Part shown: one piece after another, positions 13 to 22,692 of the stretch | How the letters are laid out: each line of letters opens with the position of its first letter | How positions within the stretch are numbered: the stretch's first letter is position 1 | From: Thermococcus kodakarensis KOD1 | Lineage (GTDB): Archaea; Methanobacteriota_B; Thermococci; Thermococcales; Thermococcaceae | Length of the DNA stretch: 32,000 bases | Assembly: GCF_000009965.1 (NCBI RefSeq) | Contig: NC_006624.1 | Coordinates: forward strand, 1,770,001-1,802,000 | Direction: 5' to 3' | The notes under the pieces: model-generated | What the model was told of the DNA's origin: nothing | Databases searched by the model: none | Seen by the model: the letters and a program-made list of their open reading frames with translations, nothing else | Made by a program: the position numbers and the translations under genes

Positions 13-90
13 TGGTGGACCGGGCGGGATTTGAACCCGCGGCCTCCGCCTTGCGAGGGCGGCGCTCATACCAGGCTGAGCTACCGGCCC
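13..90 (-). tRNA. tRNA-Ala (anticodon CGC) with genomically encoded CCA
   Basis: The reverse complement folds as GGGCCGG-UA-GCUC-AGCCUGGUAU-GAGC-G-CCGCC-CUCGCAA-GGCGG-AGGCC-GCGGG-UUCAAAU-CCCGC-CCGGUCC-A-CCA. This is a complete cloverleaf with anticodon loop CU-CGC-AA and the G3:U70 alanine identity pair. Confidence 0.9.
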
Positions 91-2934: not shown

Positions 2935-3849
2935 TCAGCCCTTGAGGGCTTCCACTATCTTCTCGGCGACCTCGACGCCTGCCCTCATCTGGGCCTCAAC
3001 AGTCGAGGCGCCGATGTGCGGCGTTAGAACAACGTTGTCAAGCTTTGTGAGCGGGTGGTCTGCTGGAAGGGGCTCCTCCTCGAAGACATCAAGGCCTGCT
3101 CCCGCGATCCAGCCCTCCTGAAGGGCCTTGACGAGGGCATCGGTGTCAACTACCGCACCCCTTGCGGCGTTGATGAGTATGGCGGTCGGCTTCATGAGCT
3201 TGAGCCTCTCCTCGTTTATGAGGTGGTAGGTTGCATCAACCAGCGGGACGTGGAGCGTAACGACGTCGCTCTCCTTCAGGAGCGTCTCAAGGTCAGCAAA
3301 CTTTCCTCCGACCTCCTTTGCCCTTTCCTCGTTTGGATACGGGTCGTAGAAGAGAACCTTCATGCCGAGGGCGTTCGCTATCTTTGCAACCTGGTAGCCT
3401 ATTCTTCCGAAGCCGACGACTCCAATGGTCTTGCCCTCAAGCTCTATTCCCATGCACTGCTTCTTGGCCCAGACGCCTTCCCTCATCTTCCTGTCGGCGA
3501 AGGCTATCTTCCTCGCGACGGCGAAGATAAGGCCGATGGCCAGTTCGGCGACGCTCCTGGAGCTAGCCCCAGGACTGTTTACGACCTTAATTCCCCTCTC
3601 CTCGGCGGCCTTGAGGTCAATGTTGTCGAGGCCAACGCCAGCCCTTCCTATGACCTTGAGCTTGGGAGCGGCCTCGATGACCTTCCTGGTTACCTTCGGC
3701 TTGCTCCTAACGATTATCGCATCGACGTCTTTAACGAGTTCAACGAGCCTGTCCTCATCGGGATACTCCTCGTAAACGACCTCAAAGCCGGCGTTCTTCA
3801 AAACCTCTATCGCCTTCTCGTGAAGCGGAGCGGCAACGAGAACCTTCAT
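2935..3849 (-). CDS. D-3-phosphoglycerate dehydrogenase / D-isomer-specific 2-hydroxyacid dehydrogenase (short form)
   Basis: 304 aa with the NAD fold GVVGFGRIGYQVA, the RGAVVD motif, and the catalytic TPHIGAST histidine region. Confidence 0.85.
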   Translation of the reverse strand: MKVLVAAPLHEKAIEVLKNAGFEVVYEEYPDEDRLVELVKDVDAIIVRSKPKVTRKVIEAAPKLKVIGRAGVGLDNIDLKAAEERGIKVVNSPGASSRSVAELAIGLIFAVARKIAFADRKMREGVWAKKQCMGIELEGKTIGVVGFGRIGYQVAKIANALGMKVLFYDPYPNEERAKEVGGKFADLETLLKESDVVTLHVPLVDATYHLINEERLKLMKPTAILINAARGAVVDTDALVKALQEGWIAGAGLDVFEEEPLPADHPLTKLDNVVLTPHIGASTVEAQMRAGVEVAEKIVEALKG

Positions 3850-6657: not shown

Positions 6658-7175
6658 GCGTGGAGAAGTTTAGAGTCGGGGAGAGAGTGGTTTGGATCGG
6701 TGTAATCTTCTCTGGGAGGGTGCAGGGGATAGCCTTCGCCTTCGACAGGGGCACGCTGATGAAAAGAATCCACGACCTTGCCGAGCACCTGGGGAAGAGA
6801 GGAGTCAGCATATCACTCGACGTCCAGCCGAGCGATTACCCTGAGAAGGTCTTCAAAGTCCTGATTGGGGAGCTCGACAATGCCAGCTTTCTCCGGGAAC
6901 TTTCCTTTGAGGGCGTTACACCCTTTGAGAAGAAGGTTTACGAGTGGCTCACAAAAAACGTTAAAAGAGGGAGCGTTATAACCTACGGTGACCTTGCAAA
7001 GGCGCTCAACACGTCCCCGCGGGCAGTTGGTGGGGCAATGAAGAGAAACCCGTATCCAATCGTTGTTCCCTGTCACAGGGTCGTTGCACACGATGGTATT
7101 GGTTACTACAGCTCCGGGATTGAGGAAAAGAAGTTCCTGCTGGAAATTGAGGGGGTGAAAGAATGGACAAGCTGA
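6651..7175 (+). CDS. ogt: methylated-DNA--protein-cysteine methyltransferase (O6-alkylguanine-DNA alkyltransferase)
   Basis: Carries the PCHRVV active site and the YGDLAKALNTSPRAVGGAMKRNP helix-turn-helix. The start MLSVEKF gives 174 aa and overlaps the upstream stop by 7 nt. The sequence matches my recollection of the T. kodakarensis MGMT. Confidence 0.9.
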   Translation: MLSVEKFRVGERVVWIGVIFSGRVQGIAFAFDRGTLMKRIHDLAEHLGKRGVSISLDVQPSDYPEKVFKVLIGELDNASFLRELSFEGVTPFEKKVYEWLTKNVKRGSVITYGDLAKALNTSPRAVGGAMKRNPYPIVVPCHRVVAHDGIGYYSSGIEEKKFLLEIEGVKEWTS

Positions 7176-8194
7176 AAGCTTACCTGATAGGGTTTCTTAT
7201 TGCAGTCATAGCTATAGCGGCCGGGATAGTCTGGTACGGCGGCTGGAAGCTTCTGCTCCAGGTGATACTCGTTCTTGGTTTCCTCGGCCTCACGCTCGGC
7301 CTCGGCTTCTTCACTGCGCTGACCCTCTACGCCGAGAGCTGGAAGTATGGAACCATACTGGCTGTTTTCACGGCCATCAGCGCCTACGGCCTCTACCTCA
7401 GCTGGACTTGGAAGAACCTCGAAGTGGTCGCAGGTATAATAGTCTTCTTCATAGCGGTGGTTGCCTTCGGAATCTGGTACATCAGCGAGCCTGACCTTGG
7501 ACTTGTTGACCGCTTCAAGAGCGCGGAAAGCCTCGAAAGAGCTGGAAAGTACAAGCAGGCAGCCAGAAAGTACGAGAAGGCAGGCAACTACCTGAAGGCA
7601 GCGGAGATGTACATAAAGCTCGGCTGGCTTGAGAGCGCGGCCTGGGCCTACGAGAAGGCAGGAGAGTACGCAAAGGCAGCTGAAATATACGAGCAGCTCT
7701 ATGGAAAGGAGAAGGACACCTACTACCTCAAGGAGGCCCACGAGTACTGGAAGAAGGCCGGAGACATGGAGAGGGCAGCGAAGGCCCTGGAGCGCTACGC
7801 CGAGGAGGAGCCCTGGTTCTGGGAGGATGTTGCTAAACTCTACGAGGAGCTTGGAAACGAGGAGAAGGCCAGGGAAGCCTGGGAAAAGGCCCTTGAGTAT
7901 TACAAGGGCGAAGCCCAGGAAGAAGGAGTATTCTGGGAGGACGTCGGGAACATCGCAAGGAAGCTCGGCATGGAAGACCTTGCCAGGGAAGCCTACGGGA
8001 AGTTCCTCGAGTACTGCCTGAAGGAAGCTGAGGAGGACCCGATGTGGTGGAAGCACGTGGCAGAGGCCTACGAGTACCTCGGCGAGACAGAGAAGGCCGA
8101 AGAGGCCAGGGAGAAGTACGAGGAGTACAGGCAGAAGATCATGAAGGCGAACGAAGAAACTTCAAAGTTCCCTGAAGACGAGAAGAGGGAGTGA
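7163..8194 (+). CDS. membrane-anchored TPR-like repeat protein
   Basis: 343 aa. There are four N-terminal hydrophobic helices, then repeated A..YEKAG.Y..AAE.Y units and Trp-rich acidic repeats. The ATG sits inside the ogt 3' end (13-nt overlap) after GGGGGTGA. Confidence 0.7.
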   Translation: MDKLKAYLIGFLIAVIAIAAGIVWYGGWKLLLQVILVLGFLGLTLGLGFFTALTLYAESWKYGTILAVFTAISAYGLYLSWTWKNLEVVAGIIVFFIAVVAFGIWYISEPDLGLVDRFKSAESLERAGKYKQAARKYEKAGNYLKAAEMYIKLGWLESAAWAYEKAGEYAKAAEIYEQLYGKEKDTYYLKEAHEYWKKAGDMERAAKALERYAEEEPWFWEDVAKLYEELGNEEKAREAWEKALEYYKGEAQEEGVFWEDVGNIARKLGMEDLAREAYGKFLEYCLKEAEEDPMWWKHVAEAYEYLGETEKAEEAREKYEEYRQKIMKANEETSKFPEDEKRE

Positions 8195-8542
8195 ATTTTC
8201 TCTTGTTTCTACCTTTACAATCCTTCAATTATTCTGTCAATTTCTTCAGCGTTTAGCTTCTCCCCCTTCACGATGCCCCAGTACTTTTCGATCTTTTTCC
8301 TGACTGGGATGATTCCAGTTTCTTCGGTCTTTTTGGCTTCTTCTTCCTCAAGCTCTCTCCTTCCTTTCCACGTATCCCTTTATCCACCGTGAGAGTGCCC
8401 AGTAGAGAACCGCCATCACTAGCAGTCCTAGAGTGGCCAAGACAATCCCTCTCTCAGTGGGCACGGATTGTGGAACGGCGGGCATCGTCTCACTGAGCTT
8501 GTTTATTCCAGAAAGATGCTTTAAGGGTTCTCATTTTCTCAA

Positions 8543-8556
8543 CCTTTTTAAAATCC
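8543..8556 (+). promoter_or_regulatory. putative TATA box for the NAC gene
   Basis: CCTTTTTAAAATCC lies about 30 nt upstream of ATG 8583, with GGTGGA as the RBS. Confidence 0.45.
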
Positions 8557-8582
8557 CCCGACAACTCTACCCGGTGGAAGCT

Positions 8583-8918
8583 ATGATGGGAATGAACCCG
8601 AGACAGATGAAGAAGCTCATGAAGCAGCTGGGCATTAAGATGGAGGAGCTTGAGGGCGTGGAAGAAGTAGTTCTGAGGATGAAGGGCAAGGAGATAATCT
8701 TAAAGGAGCCGGCCGTTACCGTGATGGTCGTCCAGGGAGAGAAGACCTACCAGATAATCCCTGGAAGTGAGGAAGTGAGAGAAGTCCTTGAAATTTCAGA
8801 GGATGACATAAAGCTCGTCATGGAGCAGGCGGGAGTTGACTACGATACCGCAAAAAAGGCGCTGGAAGAAGCGAAAGGAGACCTCGCGGAGGCTATCCTG
8901 AAGCTCACTGAGGGGTGA
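8583..8918 (+). CDS. nac: nascent polypeptide-associated complex protein (archaeal NAC; NAC + UBA domains)
   Basis: [29 protein letters not shown]… followed by a C-terminal UBA-like [20 protein letters not shown]. The 8433 start in the ORF track runs through the promoter, so it was rejected. Confidence 0.85.
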
Positions 8919-8921
8919 TCC

Positions 8922-9278
8922 TCACTCCCCATGCTCTTTTTGGAAGCTCTCTATGGCCTTAACGAGCGGGATGAGGTGCATCAACGCCGGGCCGCCGGCC
9001 ATCAGAACCGCCACGAGGCCAGCTTCAATAAGCTCCTCCGGCTTTGCACCGGCTTCGAGGGCCTTCTGGGTGTGGAGGTAGATGCACCACTCGCAGCCTG
9101 CAGCTATTCCAAGGGCTAGGGCTATGAGCTCCTTCTCCCTCGTTGTAAGGGCTTTGTTGTCAAGGGTCTCGCGGAGGAACCTTGAGAACGCCGCTATCTC
9201 TTTAGGGTGCTCTTTACCGAGCTTTTCGAGGAGCTCCTCAATCTCTTTCAACTTAACCATAACGTCGCCGTTCTCCAT
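8922..9278 (-). CDS. carboxymuconolactone decarboxylase / AhpD-like family protein
   Basis: About 118 aa, with the CxxC motif in GIAAGCEWCIYLH characteristic of the AhpD core. The start is ambiguous (9287, 9278 or 9260). Confidence 0.8.
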   Translation of the reverse strand: MENGDVMVKLKEIEELLEKLGKEHPKEIAAFSRFLRETLDNKALTTREKELIALALGIAAGCEWCIYLHTQKALEAGAKPEELIEAGLVAVLMAGGPALMHLIPLVKAIESFQKEHGE

Positions 9279-9342
9279 AAATATCACCGGTATAAGTTAG
9301 AACGGCAGATTTAAAGGGATTTCCAGAACAAAAGGTTGAAAA

Positions 9343-10881
9343 CTAAACGTTCGCCACGATTCCCTGCCTTCTCATCTTGAGTATGTCGTCGATAACGTCT
9401 ATCAGGCCCGCTATTATCTCGTCGTATTTACCCCCCTCCGAGCCGTAAAGCTCCTTGAGCTTGTCTTTTATGGTGAACAGCACTTCCGTATCAAGTTCAA
9501 GGAGTTTCTGGGCTTCCCTTGCTAGGAACTTGAGGGCTACTCCCCTAGCTTTCTCGTCGTCCAGAAGGCGGAGTATCAGCTTTGTTATTTTTTCGCGCAT
9601 GTCTTCGCTAGGAATCTTCTCTGACAGCCTGGCCATGAACTCAAGTGCCCCCTCAATGTCTCTTGGATTTCCCGATTTCAGGAGAGCGTCCAGGAGGGAG
9701 GCGAAGAATTTGGAAGTTCCTGGGTACAGGGCGTGGATATCCGCCAGGGTTTTTGCGGCGGTTTCCCTCGCCCAGGCGTTCTTTGACTTGAGGAACTCTC
9801 CGAGAATCGGCAGGATCCTGTAGGCGTCCGTGGGGGTAAGATGGGATGTTAACTTTGAGACGATCCAGAGGGCGTCCATCCTTCTCGTGTAGTCCTCACT
9901 CTCCAGCATTGAGAGGACTTTTTCCATGACTGCTGGATCCAGCTTGGCCATCTCTGCCACTATATCTGCTTTTCCAGCGTCGAGTAGCTTTTCAACGTCG
10001 TCAATCGAGTACTGGGAAACCTCAAGGGCCTTGGTAACGCCCTCGCTCTCGATGGTTTCTTCGGCAATGTTGGTGGCCTTTTCAAGCTTCTCCATGACCT
10101 GGGATGCAAGAAGGCCGAGCTTAACGTCGCCGCGAAGCTCTTTGATCTTGCTGACTGCCTTCAGCTTGTTTCTCGTGGAAAGCTCCTTCTCCCTTGTTAG
10201 GAGTCTGTCGATTGAGTAGAGCGCCCTCTCCACAACGTACGGGTCGGGGTGGGAGAGAAGATCAGTGATTCCGTCGAACACTCTGTTCAATATGTTCGAG
10301 TCTGTTGTCTTGCTTGCTATCTCTGTTAGGGCCGTGATTGCCGCACTCTGTACGTCGCGTTTTTTGCTCGAGCCAATGAGAGAGAACAGCCAGTTTATCA
10401 GCTTGTACGCTATGGCAACAACGTTTGCCCCCAGCTTTCCGAGGCCCTCCGCGGCGTATTCTCCAAGTATCGGCACTCCCGACTTGAGGACATCCTGAAG
10501 GGTCTCCATGACCCTCTCGTAATCTTCCTCACTTAGGTCTCCCGACTCGAGAAGGGTGTTTATTACCTCGATGGCTTTCAGTGCGACCCGCTCATCCTTA
10601 TCCCTGGCCAGCTCAAGGATTCTCGGAAGAACCCTCTGAAGGCGCGGCCTTGACATCTTGCCTTCGGATATCATATCTTTTATTATCTGGAGCACGTTTG
10701 CCCTTACGTGAGGGTTGTCGTCATACAAGAACTCGACGAGAACAGCGAACACTTTGTCATATTTTTCTGCCAGAGCTTTAACGTCCTTTAGCCTCCAGGC
10801 GAGAATATCTTCCTTTAGGCCCTCTTTATCGACTATGAGGTCACTACCTTTTATAACAGCCAAAAGCGCGAGGCTCAGCAT
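9343..10881 (-). CDS. HEAT/armadillo-type alpha-helical repeat protein
   Basis: 512 aa from the ATG at 10881 (GGGGGAG RBS). Recurrent units of about 35-40 aa carry D.(N/D)P.VR-type HEAT signatures (DDNPHVRANV, HPDPYVVERA, SKNAWARETA). The ORF-track extension to 10983 crosses the divergent promoter region. Confidence 0.7.
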   Translation of the reverse strand: MLSLALLAVIKGSDLIVDKEGLKEDILAWRLKDVKALAEKYDKVFAVLVEFLYDDNPHVRANVLQIIKDMISEGKMSRPRLQRVLPRILELARDKDERVALKAIEVINTLLESGDLSEEDYERVMETLQDVLKSGVPILGEYAAEGLGKLGANVVAIAYKLINWLFSLIGSSKKRDVQSAAITALTEIASKTTDSNILNRVFDGITDLLSHPDPYVVERALYSIDRLLTREKELSTRNKLKAVSKIKELRGDVKLGLLASQVMEKLEKATNIAEETIESEGVTKALEVSQYSIDDVEKLLDAGKADIVAEMAKLDPAVMEKVLSMLESEDYTRRMDALWIVSKLTSHLTPTDAYRILPILGEFLKSKNAWARETAAKTLADIHALYPGTSKFFASLLDALLKSGNPRDIEGALEFMARLSEKIPSEDMREKITKLILRLLDDEKARGVALKFLAREAQKLLELDTEVLFTIKDKLKELYGSEGGKYDEIIAGLIDVIDDILKMRRQGIVANV

Positions 10882-10963: not shown

Positions 10964-12292
10964 ATGAGGGCAATAGGTGTCATCAGAAACTCCAGAAGGG
11001 AGCGCCTGAGCAGGGCGGAGTTCGAAGAACTGCTGAGGAGCGCTGGCTACGAGGTTCTGGCCATAGTAGAGCAGAACAGGGAGGAGCACCCACGCTACAA
11101 CATAGGGCCTGGCAAGCTCGAGGAGCTCAAGGAGCTTGTTAAAGAGCTCAAGCCCGACAAGGTCATCTTTGCGAATAGACTGACTCCGAGTCAGGCCTAC
11201 AATCTCTGGAAGGAGCTCAGGATTGAGATAATGGACCGCTGGCAGCTCGTCCTTGAGATATTCGAGAAGAGGGCACACTCAAAGGAAGCTAAGTTGCAAG
11301 TAGAACTCGCCTCGCTCCAGTACGAAATTCCTCTGGTCAAGGAGGCCATCAGGAGGATAAGGCTCGGCGACAGGGCCGGTTTTAAGGGCATGGGTGAGTA
11401 CCAGACCCAGCAGTACCTCAAGCACATCCGCTATAGGATGGGCAAAATACGGGACGAGCTTGAGAGGGTTAAGGCAGACAGAGAGGTTAAGAGAAAGAAG
11501 AGGGAGAACGCCGGCTTCGTCCTCGTTGCCCTCGCTGGGTACACCAACGCGGGAAAATCAACCCTTCTCAACGCTTTAGCGGATGAGAACGTTGAAGCGA
11601 AGAATCAAATGTTCACGACACTCGACACTACAACGAGGCGCTTCAGACTCGGCACGAAGAGGATTCTCGCAACCGACACTGTTGGGTTCATCGACGGTCT
11701 GCCCCCCTTCATAGTTGAGGCCTTCCACTCCACGCTTGAAGAGATAGTGAAGGCCGACATAGTTCTCCTCGTTCTGGACTCAAGCGAGCCTTGGGGGGAG
11801 ATACGGAGGAAGTTCCTGGCCTCTCTTCAGGTGCTCAGGGAGCTGAAGGCCCTTGAAAAGCCGATCATAGTTGCCCTCAACAAGATAGACCTGATAGAGG
11901 AAGCTGACGCCGAGGAGAAGGTCAGGCTGATATGGGAACTCGCCCGCGAAAGGGGAATAAGCCTTGAGGACGTGGTGAAAATCTCGGCGAGGGAGGGCCG
12001 CCTCGAGGAACTCATGGATGCATTAAACAGGGTCGTCCTTAAACTGCCCAAGTACGGTGCTTTCAGGATAATCGTGAAAGAGCCTGAGAAAGTCCCTGCA
12101 GTGATGGCACTCATAAACTCCGTTGGAGAAGTTCTGTCAGTCGAGTACGGTGAAAAGACGAGGATAGACGCTTACGTCCAGACTGGAATGGTCGGCGAGA
12201 TCAAGAAAATGGGGGCCGAGATAGAGAGGTTAAACCATTCCGGCGAGGGCGAAGAGCTTGAGCAGGACGAAGGATATTCCGATGGCGGTTAG
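10964..12292 (+). CDS. hflX: GTPase HflX
   Basis: HflX N-terminal domain plus G-domain motifs GYTNAGKSTLLNAL (G1), DTVGF (G3) and NKID (G4). Confidence 0.85.
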   Translation: MRAIGVIRNSRRERLSRAEFEELLRSAGYEVLAIVEQNREEHPRYNIGPGKLEELKELVKELKPDKVIFANRLTPSQAYNLWKELRIEIMDRWQLVLEIFEKRAHSKEAKLQVELASLQYEIPLVKEAIRRIRLGDRAGFKGMGEYQTQQYLKHIRYRMGKIRDELERVKADREVKRKKRENAGFVLVALAGYTNAGKSTLLNALADENVEAKNQMFTTLDTTTRRFRLGTKRILATDTVGFIDGLPPFIVEAFHSTLEEIVKADIVLLVLDSSEPWGEIRRKFLASLQVLRELKALEKPIIVALNKIDLIEEADAEEKVRLIWELARERGISLEDVVKISAREGRLEELMDALNRVVLKLPKYGAFRIIVKEPEKVPAVMALINSVGEVLSVEYGEKTRIDAYVQTGMVGEIKKMGAEIERLNHSGEGEELEQDEGYSDGG

Positions 12293-19040: not shown

Positions 19041-19064
19041 TTTCAGTTTCTTTTTCTTTTAAAA
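19041..19064 (+). promoter_or_regulatory. oligo-T terminator-like tract after porB, abutting a TTTTAAAA box
   Basis: TTTCAGTTTCTTTTTCTTTTAAAA lies immediately after the porB stop. The TTTTAAAA at 19057-19064 could be the TATA box for the downstream operon. Confidence 0.4.
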
Positions 19065-19077
19065 TTCTTGATACCGT

Positions 19078-20061
19078 GTGGCTTCTTGGGTTTCGTGGAA
19101 GAAAATTCTTTCCATGCTCTTCGGGTTTTTGATTTTGGGATTGGCGTTCAGCGGTGCGAGTGCAACGGCGAACCTCGTCAACAGCACAGTGAACGGCACC
19201 GTAACGGTTCCGTCAGAGTTAACTCCTGAGAAGAAACCCGGAGACGAGGTACGGCCGCAGTTTGGAGGGGCTACAGTTGTTGTGGAGCCCTTCATAGAGG
19301 CTTTTGTCCCCGGTGTAGGATGGGTAGTGGCGGTTGGAAGCCTCGTGGCGTTAATTGCCAAATACTTGTACTCAAAGCCTGTCAGCGAGTTCACTGAGGG
19401 GTTTGTAAGTGAAATTCCAGATAGGATTACTTACAATGGGCAGGAGCTCGCAAAGGGCGTTAAGACTAACTTCTGGGGAACGGAAGTAGAGATTGGCTAT
19501 GGGTACGTTAAGAAAAAATGGGGCGGTCTAAAGAAGGAAACCGTCATAGTGAAGTCGGTCATAACAATAACCAGGGATGAAGTCAAGGCTGTAGAAGACT
19601 TATTCAGCCCAAAGGAGTACGGCAAACTCTTGGCACAAGCGTACTTAAACGGCTGGGATGCCAACGATGCTAAAAAGCTTGCAGAGGATTTTGACAGGGA
19701 GTACAGGGGTTTCAGGGCACACTTCAATGGGGCAAACCTCGATTGTGGAGTATTCGAAGGAGGAGATGTTATCATTGATGCAAAAGGGGCAAAACATATT
19801 ATTTTCAACCACATCATGAAAAAGCCTGGAAAGGATCAGTTCACTCACATTTCCGCCGTGGATCTTTTAAACGAAATGGGCAAGGTTATAGAAAACCCAG
19901 ACAAAATTAAATGCGGAGACATTATCAGTGGAAAACAGAGAATAGTACTTGTTAAATATTCCCCAAAGCTGGGAAAGAAAGTGGTGGTAGTGATTGAGAG
20001 AATCAAGTGGGGGATGTACCGGATAGTTACGGCATTCCCACCATCTTCAAGGAGATATTGA
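19078..20061 (+). CDS. membrane-anchored protein of unknown function with a DUF4258/BECR-like (RelE-fold toxin-like) C-terminal module (gene A)
   Basis: 327-aa ORF with a GTG start (an alternative ATG is at 19114). It has an N-terminal signal/TM segment (KKILSMLFGFLILGLAFSGASA), a loop with NST and NGT sequons, and a second TM (FVPGVGWVVAVGSLVALIAKYLY). The C-terminus KHIIFNHIMKK…VIENPDKI…GKQRIVLVKY…KKVVVVIER…YRIVTAFPP resembles the H…/…enP..i…/…vvVv…/…ivTay pattern of DUF4258-type toxins, judged from memory. Confidence 0.6.
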   Translation: MASWVSWKKILSMLFGFLILGLAFSGASATANLVNSTVNGTVTVPSELTPEKKPGDEVRPQFGGATVVVEPFIEAFVPGVGWVVAVGSLVALIAKYLYSKPVSEFTEGFVSEIPDRITYNGQELAKGVKTNFWGTEVEIGYGYVKKKWGGLKKETVIVKSVITITRDEVKAVEDLFSPKEYGKLLAQAYLNGWDANDAKKLAEDFDREYRGFRAHFNGANLDCGVFEGGDVIIDAKGAKHIIFNHIMKKPGKDQFTHISAVDLLNEMGKVIENPDKIKCGDIISGKQRIVLVKYSPKLGKKVVVVIERIKWGMYRIVTAFPPSSRRY

Positions 20062-20068
20062 CAGGGAG

Positions 20069-20932
20069 GTGATTTCAATCTTTGCTTTTTCATTCTTCCT
20101 ACAGGAGGGAGATAGGGGATTTCCAGTGCTGGTGCTCGAAGAGGGGCCAGTTTTCATCAGTGAAGACCCAGTGACGCTGGATGAATTCATAAGCTCCCTA
20201 AAGGCACTCCACTCGATGGATGCTCTCCCGAAAAAGCTCTGGGACCTCAAGATAATGGCTGAGGGTGGATGGGTTCACCTGACCCTTCGGGATGGTGGGG
20301 AAGTACAGCTCACCCGTGACAACTTCATCGAGGCAATCCGAACTTCCATCCAGAACCTGAAAGCGGTTCTCAATAATAAACCCGTGAGGATGGGGTGGCT
20401 CAGGTTCAAACTAAAGCCGCCTTCGCATGAAGTTCTTGAGATGTTCGGTGAACCTGAGGATATCATGGACGAGTACGAAGTTCAAGTTTACGGGAGCACG
20501 TACGTACTGGAGGCGTTTGTTAATCTCGAAGGGTACGTTGAGGAGCTTAAACTTCTCAAGGCGTTTGTGGCGGATGGCAAACTGCCTGCGGAGGAGTGGC
20601 GGGTAAAGTGGAACGTTGATGGTGAAATCAAGAGGCTGTCTTCCAAAGGGGCAAAAAAGCCGGAGGATAGGGGCCTTCTCCGCGAACTGGCGGGCCTTAA
20701 AAAGCTCTCAGCAGGAGCAGCTCCTCCTTTCGTTCGCTTTACCCTTTCAACCTATGACCCCTTTGAAGTTCTCTACGCGGCAGACTCTGGAAAGGGAGAA
20801 TTTTTGCTGGCATTCGTCCTGTATTCTGGCATGGCCGTCAAAGTCCCAAAGAACGTCTTCCTGAGGGCCATCGATGAGGCCATCAAAGATGCAGAAAAGG
20901 AACTTAAAAGGGTAAAGCTATCTGGGAGGTGA
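20069..20932 (+). CDS. hypothetical soluble protein (gene B)
   Basis: 287-aa ORF beginning 7 nt after the gene A stop, with its GTG inside GGGAGGTGA. An alternative GTG lies about 60 nt downstream. No recognisable family. Confidence 0.55.
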   Translation: MISIFAFSFFLQEGDRGFPVLVLEEGPVFISEDPVTLDEFISSLKALHSMDALPKKLWDLKIMAEGGWVHLTLRDGGEVQLTRDNFIEAIRTSIQNLKAVLNNKPVRMGWLRFKLKPPSHEVLEMFGEPEDIMDEYEVQVYGSTYVLEAFVNLEGYVEELKLLKAFVADGKLPAEEWRVKWNVDGEIKRLSSKGAKKPEDRGLLRELAGLKKLSAGAAPPFVRFTLSTYDPFEVLYAADSGKGEFLLAFVLYSGMAVKVPKNVFLRAIDEAIKDAEKELKRVKLSGR

Positions 20933-20936
20933 GCTC

Positions 20937-21323
20937 ATGTCTTTCCCCTTTATCTTCTTTGGCTTCGAGGAGGCTCTCAGGGGCGAGGTGCCTGCGGATG
21001 CTCTAACCATTGCCATCAAACACGGGATGAAAACAGAAATTGGCATAATTGCCAGGAAGGGTTCTGAGAGAGTGGTGATAGGGTGCAAGAGAAACGCACA
21101 TAAAATAAGCGGGAACAGCTTGCAAAGTACGCTGAGTACGCCATCAATAAGGGAATCAGAAAAGATTGAGGTGTACTATGCTGGAGGCATTGAGAACATA
21201 AGGGGCTACTATTACTACACCCAGTACCTGCCAAAGGAGATAAAGTCCAGGTTTGGTGTGGACGTTGAAGTGCGTTACCTAGCTTCAGAATTCGACCGAA
21301 CCTGTTTCTTTATTTTTCATTAA
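20937..21323 (+). CDS. hypothetical protein (gene C)
   Basis: 128-aa ORF whose ATG lies 5 nt after GGGAGGTGA and 4 nt after the gene B stop. No recognisable family. Confidence 0.55.
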   Translation: MSFPFIFFGFEEALRGEVPADALTIAIKHGMKTEIGIIARKGSERVVIGCKRNAHKISGNSLQSTLSTPSIRESEKIEVYYAGGIENIRGYYYYTQYLPKEIKSRFGVDVEVRYLASEFDRTCFFIFH

Positions 21324-21347
21324 TGAATGAACCATGGGGGGAGTGGT

Positions 21348-22133
21348 ATGGGAACCACGTATTATGTTGTCGCCGTGTTTGATAGGCCTTGGGGAGAAGT
21401 GCTTGAGAAGCTCTCGCGCGAGTTCAAGTACACTCGCGAACTCGCGTACCAGCGGGAAAGACGAGAAGAGCACCTGAAGTTCATCTTTGATATGAGGGGA
21501 TTTAGGCTGGTTGCAGTGGGAGAACTGCACTACGAGCTGAAAACCACCGAGGAAGATTCCTTTGACTGGCTTGAGGTCGAAACGTACTCAAAGGAGAACA
21601 TGACGCTCCTCCAGATTGGAGTCTCCACCGGCAGGTGGCTGTTCGTCCTAAGCCCCGAACTTATGAAGTTTCTCGGAAAGCTGATGAGGGTTGGGGCGGT
21701 CCTCATCTGTGGTTACACAGACGACCACGACCTCAGAGATGCAGGCTTTGAAGAAAACAACCAGTTCCTTTTCTACGAATGGTTGGTTGAGACTGTGAAA
21801 AGAAAAAAGCTTGAAATCGTTCCTTCGGACGTTACCATAGTGAAGAAAGAACTCTTAGACTTGGAGGACGGTCTCTACGAGCTGATTGAAAGACCTGGAA
21901 GGGAGGATGAAGAGTATGTCCTAATCAAGAGATTGGATAGTTATAAAATACTTGTTTCAGTAAGAGAAAGCGATTTAACCGATGAAGAGAGCTACCGAGA
22001 GCTAATTGAAGACAAAACATGGTTCAGCTCTCATATAATTGTGGTGGTCTTTAGGCGAATTGGAAAAAAGGTCGAGAACGAGCTTCTCATTAAGAGGGTA
22101 GAAGAATACTTCAAAGCGCAAACAGAAGAGTGA
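21348..22133 (+). CDS. hypothetical acidic protein (gene D)
   Basis: The ORF is open from 21327, but the ATG at 21348 follows GGGGGGAG and is preferred (261 aa). The gene is AT-rich. No recognisable family. Confidence 0.55.
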   Translation: MGTTYYVVAVFDRPWGEVLEKLSREFKYTRELAYQRERREEHLKFIFDMRGFRLVAVGELHYELKTTEEDSFDWLEVETYSKENMTLLQIGVSTGRWLFVLSPELMKFLGKLMRVGAVLICGYTDDHDLRDAGFEENNQFLFYEWLVETVKRKKLEIVPSDVTIVKKELLDLEDGLYELIERPGREDEEYVLIKRLDSYKILVSVRESDLTDEESYRELIEDKTWFSSHIIVVVFRRIGKKVENELLIKRVEEYFKAQTEE

Positions 22134-22155: not shown

Positions 22156-22692
22156 ATGTCAGCATCAGGCAATCCGATGAAAAATCTCCCTCCTTTTCCC
22201 ACACCGGAAGCCTCTGAAGTAATAGCCGAGAGCTACAGCGCCATAGACCAGCTCCTCTACTCCGGTGACGTCCCCGAGCTTGGGAAAAATGTCCTAGTGA
22301 ACTTCGGCAACGCGCACAGCATAACCCTCGTCGGGACAGCTTTCCTCGTGCTCGCGGCGGCCCTTGAAAAGAGGAGGAAAACAATGGTGGGCCTTAACGA
22401 CGCGGCCGTGTTAAGCTACACCTCTGCAGGCGGCGCTGGGCTCCCACTGCTCACAAAACCGATGCTGAGAAGAGTAACCGTGGTTGCAAGCGAGTACGCC
22501 CTCGATTCGCTCCTCAACCTGGCCGGTCCCGTTTTGCTCCTCTACCACGACCCCGACGTCCAGAGCTTCGTTTACGAGACCAGCGGCGTACCGCCGGGGC
22601 CGAGCAGGAAGCACGTCCACAAGGGGGAGGGGGCCTTCATCTACCGCACCCCTGAAACGGTAAACGTGGAGTGGGGCAGGATGCCCCTTTAA
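22156..22692 (+). CDS. hypothetical protein (gene E), genome-typical GC
   Basis: 178-aa ORF (an alternative ATG is at 22177). Its stop overlaps the csd stop in a TTAA. No family recognised. Confidence 0.5.
   Translation: MSASGNPMKNLPPFPTPEASEVIAESYSAIDQLLYSGDVPELGKNVLVNFGNAHSITLVGTAFLVLAAALEKRRKTMVGLNDAAVLSYTSAGGAGLPLLTKPMLRRVTVVASEYALDSLLNLAGPVLLLYHDPDVQSFVYETSGVPPGPSRKHVHKGEGAFIYRTPETVNVEWGRMPL

Follow-up and report, generated by a model that had tools for sequence, protein, structure and literature searches.

A probable Thermococcales-specific polymorphic toxin/immunity locus in Thermococcus kodakarensis KOD1, with a modular toxin gene and a predicted BECR-fold nuclease end

We analysed a stretch of 32,000 nucleotides (nt) of the chromosome of Thermococcus kodakarensis KOD1 (contig NC_006624.1, positions 1,770,001 to 1,802,000 of the forward strand), hereafter called the window, to which all positions refer unless another locus is named. 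Downstream of the POR (2-oxoacid:ferredoxin oxidoreductase) genes the window holds an island of four adjoining genes, A to D; all genes of the locus carry the annotation 'hypothetical'. We consider it likely that genes A-D are a polymorphic toxin/immunity locus specific to the Thermococcales. Gene A has a modular anatomy and ends in a domain of predicted nuclease fold with conserved residues, this end co-varies with the gene that follows it, orphan cassettes occur in related loci, and recombination breakpoints lie within gene A. The original prediction, which came from the DNA sequence, had placed gene A in an open reading frame (ORF) at 19078-20061 on the forward strand; this ORF is present and its translation matches the quoted one exactly. 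Its 32 homologues are all from Thermococcus, Pyrococcus, Palaeococcus or hydrothermal metagenomes. The parts of gene A that matter for the argument, with amino acids (aa) counted from GTG 19078, are the following.

19078..20061, forward strand: gene A, predicted full-length polymorphic toxin (ORF, 32 homologues, modular alignment).
19078..19198, forward strand: leader, aa 1-40, Sec-type and signal-like, with KK, a hydrophobic core, SGASATA and two conserved sequons.
19199..19590, forward strand: exchangeable body block, aa 41-171, with the PEKKPGDEVRPQF motif, hydrophobic segment 2 and a four-stranded sheet; of a different type in the related locus L013.
19300..19371, forward strand: hydrophobic segment 2, aa 75-98 (AFVPGVGWVVAVGSLVALIAKYLY), candidate stop-transfer transmembrane segment or membrane-active element.
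19573..19722, forward strand: three-helix pre-toxin junction, aa 166-215 (EVKAVEDLFSPKEYGKLLAQAYLNGWDANDAKKLAEDF), very conserved; orphan toxin ends begin here.
19741..20058, forward strand: variable C-terminal toxin domain (CT), aa 222-327, type CT1, predicted RNase of BECR fold (Pfam, AlphaFold2 and Foldseek; G+C 0.40).
19795..19812, forward strand: codons of His240 (19795-19797) and His245 (19810-19812) in helix 1, invariant and predicted to be catalytic.
20029..20031, forward strand: codon of Thr318 in strand 4, an invariant, predicted catalytic alcohol residue.

Alignment of the homologues divided the protein into four modules: the leader, the body, the three-helix stretch and the C-terminal ~105 aa. 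The AlphaFold model of the full-length protein was confident for aa 100-325 (pLDDT ~90). Three types of body (aa 41-171) were found among the homologues and about seven types of CT, the latter 25-55% identical to one another. The same CT occurs on different bodies: CT3 is 97-100% identical across body types a, b and c, and CT1, CT2, CT4 and CT7 are each carried by two body types. The G+C content drops from 0.59 in the upstream flanking POR genes to 0.50 over the 5' half of gene A, and the final 320 nt of the gene have 0.40, so that the AT-rich 3' part described previously was confirmed; the idea that this 3' module had been swapped in was also borne out, the recombination junction mapping to ~19591-19636. 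Because orphan toxin ends start in the three-helix junction, we regard it as a site of homologous recombination. The nucleotide alignment shows that an internal block was also exchanged between the window locus and L013, a locus that shares the POR|csd context. The two are ~98% identical at the nucleotide level on both sides of the block, no DNA match was found over 19198-19591, and the 5' limit of the swapped block is the point at which the L013 homology breaks, 19198.

The L013 sequence (7001-10600) comes from Thermococcus sp. JCM 11816. Apparent frameshifts interrupt genes B and E there, along with several flanking genes, and GG/PP insertions are present in the toxin; the sequence thus gives the impression of a low-quality assembly. 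A sequencing artefact could not account for a block swap of this size (window 19198-19591).

The C-terminal end had been compared, through a string of motifs, to DUF4258 and to the BECR RNase toxins of phages. The motif string was correct, and all CT types preserve its His...His...vvVI...ivTaf spacing. The only Pfam matches of the gene A protein were PBECR3 (PF18812, 20.6 bits) and PBECR2 (PF18810, 17.8 bits). PBECR3 was matched below threshold by 9/21 family members, and P0012, the CT of which is 54% identical to that of the window, matched PBECR2 at exactly the gathering score (27.1/27.1). DUF4258 (PF14076) gave no match to the gene A protein at E ≤ 1, and the sole match to this family was that of the CT3-type paralogue P0005, with 15.1 bits (cutoff 25). 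The BECR/RelE-like nature of the module, with PBECR as the nearest clade, was thus upheld, but the specific link to DUF4258 was not, given this one 15-bit paralogue match.

Since the fold search with the full-length model was diluted by the multi-domain query, the CT was refolded alone. The resulting AlphaFold2 model (pLDDT 87, pTM 0.84) has helices at 14-26 and 39-51 and strands at 55-62, 65-74, 79-87 and 93-99 of the domain, and this predicted structure, with its N-terminal helix and four strands, matches the published description of the BECR core. In that description (Iyer et al. 2017, PMC5512222), an N-terminal helix is accompanied by four or five strands; the helix commonly bears a His, and strand 4 a Ser or Thr. 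The comparison with solved structures, which had been proposed as a check, revealed similarity of the CT model to BECR/RelE-fold toxins. The best Foldseek match was 7vd7_A (E 1.5e-3, probability 1.0, TM-score 0.55/0.60), and others were BrnT (probability 0.98, target TM-score 0.62), HigB2 (probability 0.91) and CdiA-CT Kp342 of K. pneumoniae 342 (probability 0.91, TM-score 0.51/0.50); the top specific fold matches in the PDB were all RNase toxins. With the full-length model, phage polyvalent proteins were retrieved from BFVD at probability 1.0. Sequence matches in the PDB to malate dehydrogenase (single sequence, E 0.26) and triosephosphate isomerase (CT profile, E ~1) were set aside as chance. 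G229, V231, H240, H245, I271, V304 and T318 are invariant in all CT types; for H240, H245 and T318 the invariance extends over 13 CT representatives and 3 bacterial relatives. The location of H240/H245 in helix 1 and of T318 in strand 4 agrees with the BECR active-site configuration. The models indicate that, at the level of fold and clade, the C-terminal ~105 aa is a BECR/RelE-fold nuclease, and residue conservation suggests that it is probably an endoribonuclease using His240, His245 and Thr318.

An exhaustive profile search with the CT, in a library of 1.84 billion proteins, recovered 17 proteins. The bacterial relatives P0062 and P0063 matched at E = 5e-4 to 7e-4. In P0063 the CT relative comes after an Rhs_assc_core (TIGR03696, 64.5 bits), and in P0062 after a PT-HINT domain (49 bits), so that the non-archaeal relatives are placed behind the classical carriers of polymorphic toxins. 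P0057 (3,822 aa, with Ser/Glu-rich repeats) was discarded as a false positive, its score being built from nine additive stretches of ~7 bits. The leader is all that a sister family, P0030-P0032, has in common with gene A; a PD-(D/E)xK nuclease forms the C-terminal end of P0031 and P0032, and P0032 matches Mrr_cat with 24.2 bits (cutoff 21). In L005 (10-3063), a CT7-like toxin of the Thermococcales type is followed by three genes of immunity family F2 on a 3.4-kb contig binned as a Thermotogota bacterium, which reflects either mis-binning or transfer into a bacterium.

To compare the surroundings of the toxin genes, 15 related loci were assembled, five of which were supplied by a scan of a genome collection. 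According to the identities obtained, the gene directly downstream tracks the CT type, with one exception. For CT1, identities of 87, 99 and 54% corresponded to 77, 99 and 40% in the downstream gene; for CT3, 99% corresponded to 77%, and for CT7, 58-79% to 30-70%. Using tblastn, we located six 5'-truncated CTs downstream of full-length toxins (L001, L002, L004, L006, L007 and L011). The conserved junction (aa 162-206) contains the starts of these six orphan CTs, one fragment being shorter, and behind each lies a homologue of the immunity partner of its best-matching full-length toxin (33-96% identity, E ≤ 1e-25). When the C/D pair of the window is included, an orphan CT is accompanied by the matching immunity gene in 7/7 cases. 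The segment 1720-3115 of L001 corresponds to an orphan CT1 with gene B of the window at 96% nucleotide identity. Homologues of gene B also stand alone, with 80-91% nucleotide identity, at the ends of arrays in genomes that have another toxin type and belong to other species and genera; the stand-alone copy in Palaeococcus has 91% nucleotide identity.

The homologous loci occupy several different chromosomal sites. In four species the arrays end beside the same radical-SAM gene (L007 12307-13362, L008 10735-11768, L010 2722-3558 and L004 15633-16702), and this insertion site looks like a recombination hot spot. L007 and L008 have a common upstream ThiS/ThiF/MoaE context, yet their toxin types and arrays differ.

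The N-terminal part of gene A was considered with regard to export. Across the homologues the leader is conserved over aa 1-60, and S25, A27, A31, P54, G55 and P60 are nearly invariant. Segment 1 (aa 10-28), which has AFSGASA at its C-terminal end, showed a 19-residue Kyte-Doolittle (KD) mean of 2.0, while the core of segment 2 (aa 75-94, FVPGVGWVVAVGSLVALI) showed a mean of 2.16 and a crude Hessa sum of +2.0; the two sequons are N35-S-T and N39-G-T. The hydrophobic segments and N-glycosylation sequons on which the earlier topology had been built are thus real. Twenty homologues keep them, their loops having 37 sequons per 1000 residues, and because of this conservation we do not attribute them to chance. 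A search with the leader alone recovered just five short leader fragments. P0033-P0037 (from Thermococcus sp. 2319x1, P. yayanosii, T. litoralis and others), 71-127 aa in length, consist of the leader alone or of the leader and the hydrophobic segment; they are probably what is left of toxin genes that have decayed.

The hydrophobicity of segment 2 would suffice to anchor the protein with the RNase inside. Three results point, weakly, away from a transmembrane segment. The equivalent segment of the sister family has KD values of 1.23-1.55, under the transmembrane threshold; AlphaFold rendered segment 2 as beta strands and a short helix, with no membrane helix (pLDDT 66-83); and the de-duplicated toxin bodies contain 1 sequon against 5.25 expected (Poisson P = 0.03), compared with 19 observed and 19.7 expected in the control genes of the window. 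This depletion hints that the body may be exposed to the glycosylation machinery outside the cell. Most CT types retain Cys223 (19744-19746), where the CT begins, and Cys278 (19909-19911), beyond helix 2; the two may be joined by a disulfide, and this could be relevant to export of the toxin domain.

The start codon of gene A is ambiguous. The ORF encodes 327 aa if it starts at GTG 19078 and 315 aa if it starts at ATG 19114, the start of the database copy P0001 (100% identical to gene A), which is without the KK n-region. One further element bears on this choice.

19057..19066, forward strand: putative TATA-box-like TTTTAAAATT, read from the sequence, upstream of gene A.

This element is only 12-21 nt from GTG 19078, and for this reason the upstream start is doubtful. 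Where the homologues start with ATG (MxWKK), gene A has TCG, so that in the T. kodakarensis strain the leader may be impaired or an unusual start may be used. A scan for sigma-70 promoters and terminators remained at background level, the sigma-70 model not being applicable to archaea.

We infer RNase activity of the CT, protection by gene B, use between cells and a route of delivery, which could fit together as follows. The leader would direct Sec export and the N-glycosylation of a short sequon-rich stalk, which is probably glycosylated in this way. Leader and stalk would be followed by the hydrophobic segment, by a beta/alpha body ending in the three-helix junction, and by an exchangeable BECR endoribonuclease, whose RNase activity would be the killing module. 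In the cytoplasm of the producer, the gene B protein would block the CT1 type of RNase; neighbouring Thermococcales cells without the matching immunity gene would most likely be poisoned. The junction and the leader would act as homology handles for cassette exchange, and because they provide this homology, toxin-end/immunity cassettes arriving from other strains would replace the resident one, the displaced cassettes piling up downstream. Genes C and D would be such a displaced cassette, from the sister family, in which that leader is combined with a PD-(D/E)xK end.

Several findings weigh against a polymorphic toxin system. The co-variation is broken by L007 and L002, whose CTs are 60% identical while their downstream genes are unrelated. 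The KD mean of 2.16 of segment 2 predicts that the toxin domain is kept in the cytoplasm of the producer, which is unusual for an exported polymorphic toxin, and none of the 15 loci is linked to an apparatus for secretion or delivery. In addition, the gene A protein stays under the Pfam gathering cutoffs (PBECR3 20.6 vs 30; PBECR2 17.8 vs 27.1), and the Foldseek E-values are modest (best 1.5e-3).

Two of these findings, the C-in topology predicted by the hydrophobic segments and the lack of a secretion apparatus linked to any of the loci, would be accommodated if the protein were a type I membrane toxin with a cytoplasmic RNase, packed into shed vesicles or nanotubes (or passing through cell-cell bridges) and reaching the cytoplasm of the recipient by fusion, without translocation. 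Thermococci release vesicles and vesicle-filled tubes that carry protein and DNA, according to Marguet 2013 as cited in PMC8416519, which offers a conceivable vehicle. If this were the route, no membrane would have to be crossed by the nuclease on its way to the cytoplasm of a rival, and the sorting signal would consist of the leader, stalk and hydrophobic segment. We know of no polymorphic toxin for which delivery by membrane continuity has been described as a principle. We consider this route rather unlikely: it is purely inferential, segment 2 of the sister family falls under the transmembrane threshold (KD 1.23-1.55), the sequon depletion of the body (P = 0.03) hints at a location outside the cell, and AlphaFold2 builds no transmembrane helix.

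A slightly lower probability is given to a membrane-tethered intracellular toxin-antitoxin (TA) or abortive-infection (Abi) device, whose RNase would face the cytoplasm, held by the gene B protein, until an envelope signal received through the glycosylated loop released it and arrested the growth of its own cell. The original prediction preferred such an Abi-like sensor-effector to a secreted toxin. Segments 1 and 2 predict the C-in topology that it entails, the nearest solved structures are type II TA toxins, and the toxin gene is directly followed by the gene of a cytoplasmic partner. Nevertheless, neither PADLOC nor the defence families gave a match, the partner B has no antitoxin-like DNA-binding domain in Pfam, and the extracellular loop, of only ~35-45 residues, is a low-complexity stalk without a recognisable sensor domain. 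Moreover, the locus carries the signatures of polymorphic toxins: shuffled CTs, co-varying immunity genes, orphan cassettes, stand-alone immunity genes and Rhs/PT-HINT relatives, of which the last three in particular mark toxins that act between cells. The preference for an Abi-like system was not supported on these grounds. That gene A encodes a non-toxic surface or envelope protein, with a C-terminus varying for recognition or adhesion and functionally unrelated downstream genes, is very improbable, because its signal-like leader and glycosylation sequons are outweighed by a C-terminus with a nuclease-toxin fold and invariant residues of catalytic type, by the Mrr-type nuclease of the sister family, and by downstream proteins devoid of signal or transmembrane segments.

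As a polymorphic toxin/immunity locus, genes A-D can be compared with several known systems. They share with the bacterial CdiA-CT/CdiI and Rhs-CT/RhsI systems, as these are summarised from Zhang et al. 2012 in PMC8416519, a conserved N-terminal part, an exchangeable C-terminal nuclease and an immunity gene directly downstream. The junction of gene A has a role comparable to that of VENN or the Rhs core of CdiA/Rhs, arrays of 5'-truncated orphan CT/immunity cassettes are found in both, and the gene A CT has Rhs/PT-HINT relatives. Unlike CdiA/Rhs loci, that of gene A is without a type V, VI or VII secretion system, filamentous repeats, an Rhs shell or a HINT domain; the toxin is only ~320 aa long, with a novel body of ~115 aa that has no Pfam match, and its host, an archaeon, has just one membrane and an S-layer. 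With the polyvalent PBECR2/PBECR3 proteins of phages (PMC5512222) the gene A CT shares the predicted core of a helix and four strands, with a His in the helix and a Thr in strand 4, but the locus is chromosomal and has an export leader instead of MuF, portal or LPD domains. The RelE-superfamily type II toxins (HigB, BrnT and 7vd7 chain A) are the closest solved folds (TM-score 0.4-0.62) and likewise have a protective gene next to them. In contrast to type II TA modules, the gene A toxin has 315-327 aa, with ~220 extra N-terminal residues that include a leader, its partner B has 268-287 aa and no antitoxin DNA-binding domain, and the family shows polymorphic CTs and orphan cassettes. RelE active sites typically consist of Arg, Lys and Tyr, unlike the His/His/Thr of the gene A CT.

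In archaea, polymorphic toxin systems were predicted in 2019 (Makarova et al. mBio), as reported in the citing passages of PMC8416519 and PMC6393860; as described there, they resemble the present locus in having C-terminal DNase or RNase toxins, downstream immunity genes and C-terminal fragments. The DUF4157 Zn-protease signature ascribed to archaeal systems in PMC6393860 is absent from the gene A locus. As of 2021, the archaeal systems were experimentally uncharacterised (PMC8416519). The VARTIG module of Thermococcales (PMC8416519) is similar in its hypervariable first gene, its co-varying downstream genes and the recombination of the C-terminal part between species; VARTIG proteins, however, are large, with Ig domains and no identifiable toxin domain, while gene A has no Ig domain and a nuclease end. 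The gene A family was not mentioned in the literature searched, although the survey of Makarova et al. 2019, which lay outside that search, may list it. On the basis of these comparisons, the family would be a compact, Thermococcales-restricted variant of known polymorphic toxin systems.

Every comparative-genomic hallmark of a polymorphic toxin system is present, and the locus is very compact: the toxin has ~320 aa and there is no dedicated secretion machine. Five 'hypothetical' gene families receive predicted functions: the toxin, a sister nuclease toxin and at least three immunity families. The leader/junction architecture could be reused for finding further archaeal toxins. T. kodakarensis KOD1 is a hyperthermophile with routine genetics, so that possible toxin warfare among archaea, the way a nuclease would pass an S-layer and a single membrane, and cassette exchange could be addressed in it by direct tests.

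The genes that follow gene A, and the ribosome-binding sites between them, are listed here.

20069..20932, forward strand: gene B, predicted CT1 immunity gene, 287 aa from GTG 20069 (co-variation, orphan cassette, stand-alone copies).
20065..20072, forward strand: GGAGGTGA, Shine-Dalgarno-like site directly after the gene A stop and before gene B.
20925..20932, forward strand: GGAGGTGA site overlapping the gene B stop, 4 nt before the ATG of gene C.
20937..21323, forward strand: gene C, putative orphan, decayed toxin end of the sister family, PD-(D/E)xK, Mrr-like nuclease (similarity to P0032).
21327..22133, forward strand: gene D, predicted immunity protein matching the nuclease-type toxin; start probably ATG 21348.
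22156..22692, forward strand: gene E, 178 aa, G+C 0.588 and third-position G+C (GC3) 0.715, host-like, unlike genes A-D.

For gene B, the start at GTG 20126 (268 aa), annotated in several homologues, seems the more likely one. The protein has no signal or transmembrane segment (KD maximum 1.26), and no helix-turn-helix, ribbon-helix-helix or antitoxin match was found in Pfam; a match to FtsQ_DivIB_C under the cutoff (20.5 vs 21 bits) was given no weight. The co-variation with CT1, the orphan cassette and the stand-alone copies suggest that gene B is the immunity gene for the CT1 toxin A; its product is probably cytoplasmic.

Between aa 29 and 120 (21021-21296), gene C is 39% identical to aa 265-355 of P0032 (E 7e-18). 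Its catalytic D and E positions are replaced (EIG..., IGCK), and for this reason we consider it a decayed orphan end. From the identity of gene C it was predicted that gene D would resemble the genes that follow the full-length toxins P0032 and P0031, and this was then found: gene D is 42% identical to the gene directly downstream of P0032 (E 2e-61) and 48% identical to that directly downstream of P0031 (E 1e-77). The cassette boundary falls at ~21022-21030, where the homology of L001 and L011 to cassette 1 stops. The first 28 codons of gene C (20937-21020), with their Shine-Dalgarno site and ATG, are part of the conserved 3' flank of the gene-B cassette, a flank also found in L001 (~3020-3115) and L011 (~11580-11666); the cassette may contain a short coupled ORF here.

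Gene E probably lies outside the island, given its host-like G+C. Its only match was in the sister locus L013, in which a frameshift interrupts it, and in the window it shares 4 nt with the 3' end of the cysteine desulfurase gene, which runs towards it. Gene E may be native, or the ORF may not represent a gene.

Searches of genes A-E against PADLOC gave no match at E ≤ 1, and those against PHROGs and NCBIfam gave nothing meaningful. The island had no match in plasmid or phage collections and contained no Rfam family; no integrase, adjoining tRNA or convincing flanking repeats were found. An origin from an integrated virus or plasmid was rejected because of the missing plasmid or phage match, Rfam family, adjoining tRNA and convincing repeats. 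A tRNA-Ala (CGC) at the edge of the window (13-90, reverse strand) is unrelated to the island.

Classical TA modules occur near some of the related toxin loci. HicA/HicB in L014 (12594-12940) and a PIN gene with DUF2281 in L006 (2116-2692) lie within a few kb of the toxins, and in L013 (14556-14960) a nucleotidyltransferase gene adjoins a PIN gene.

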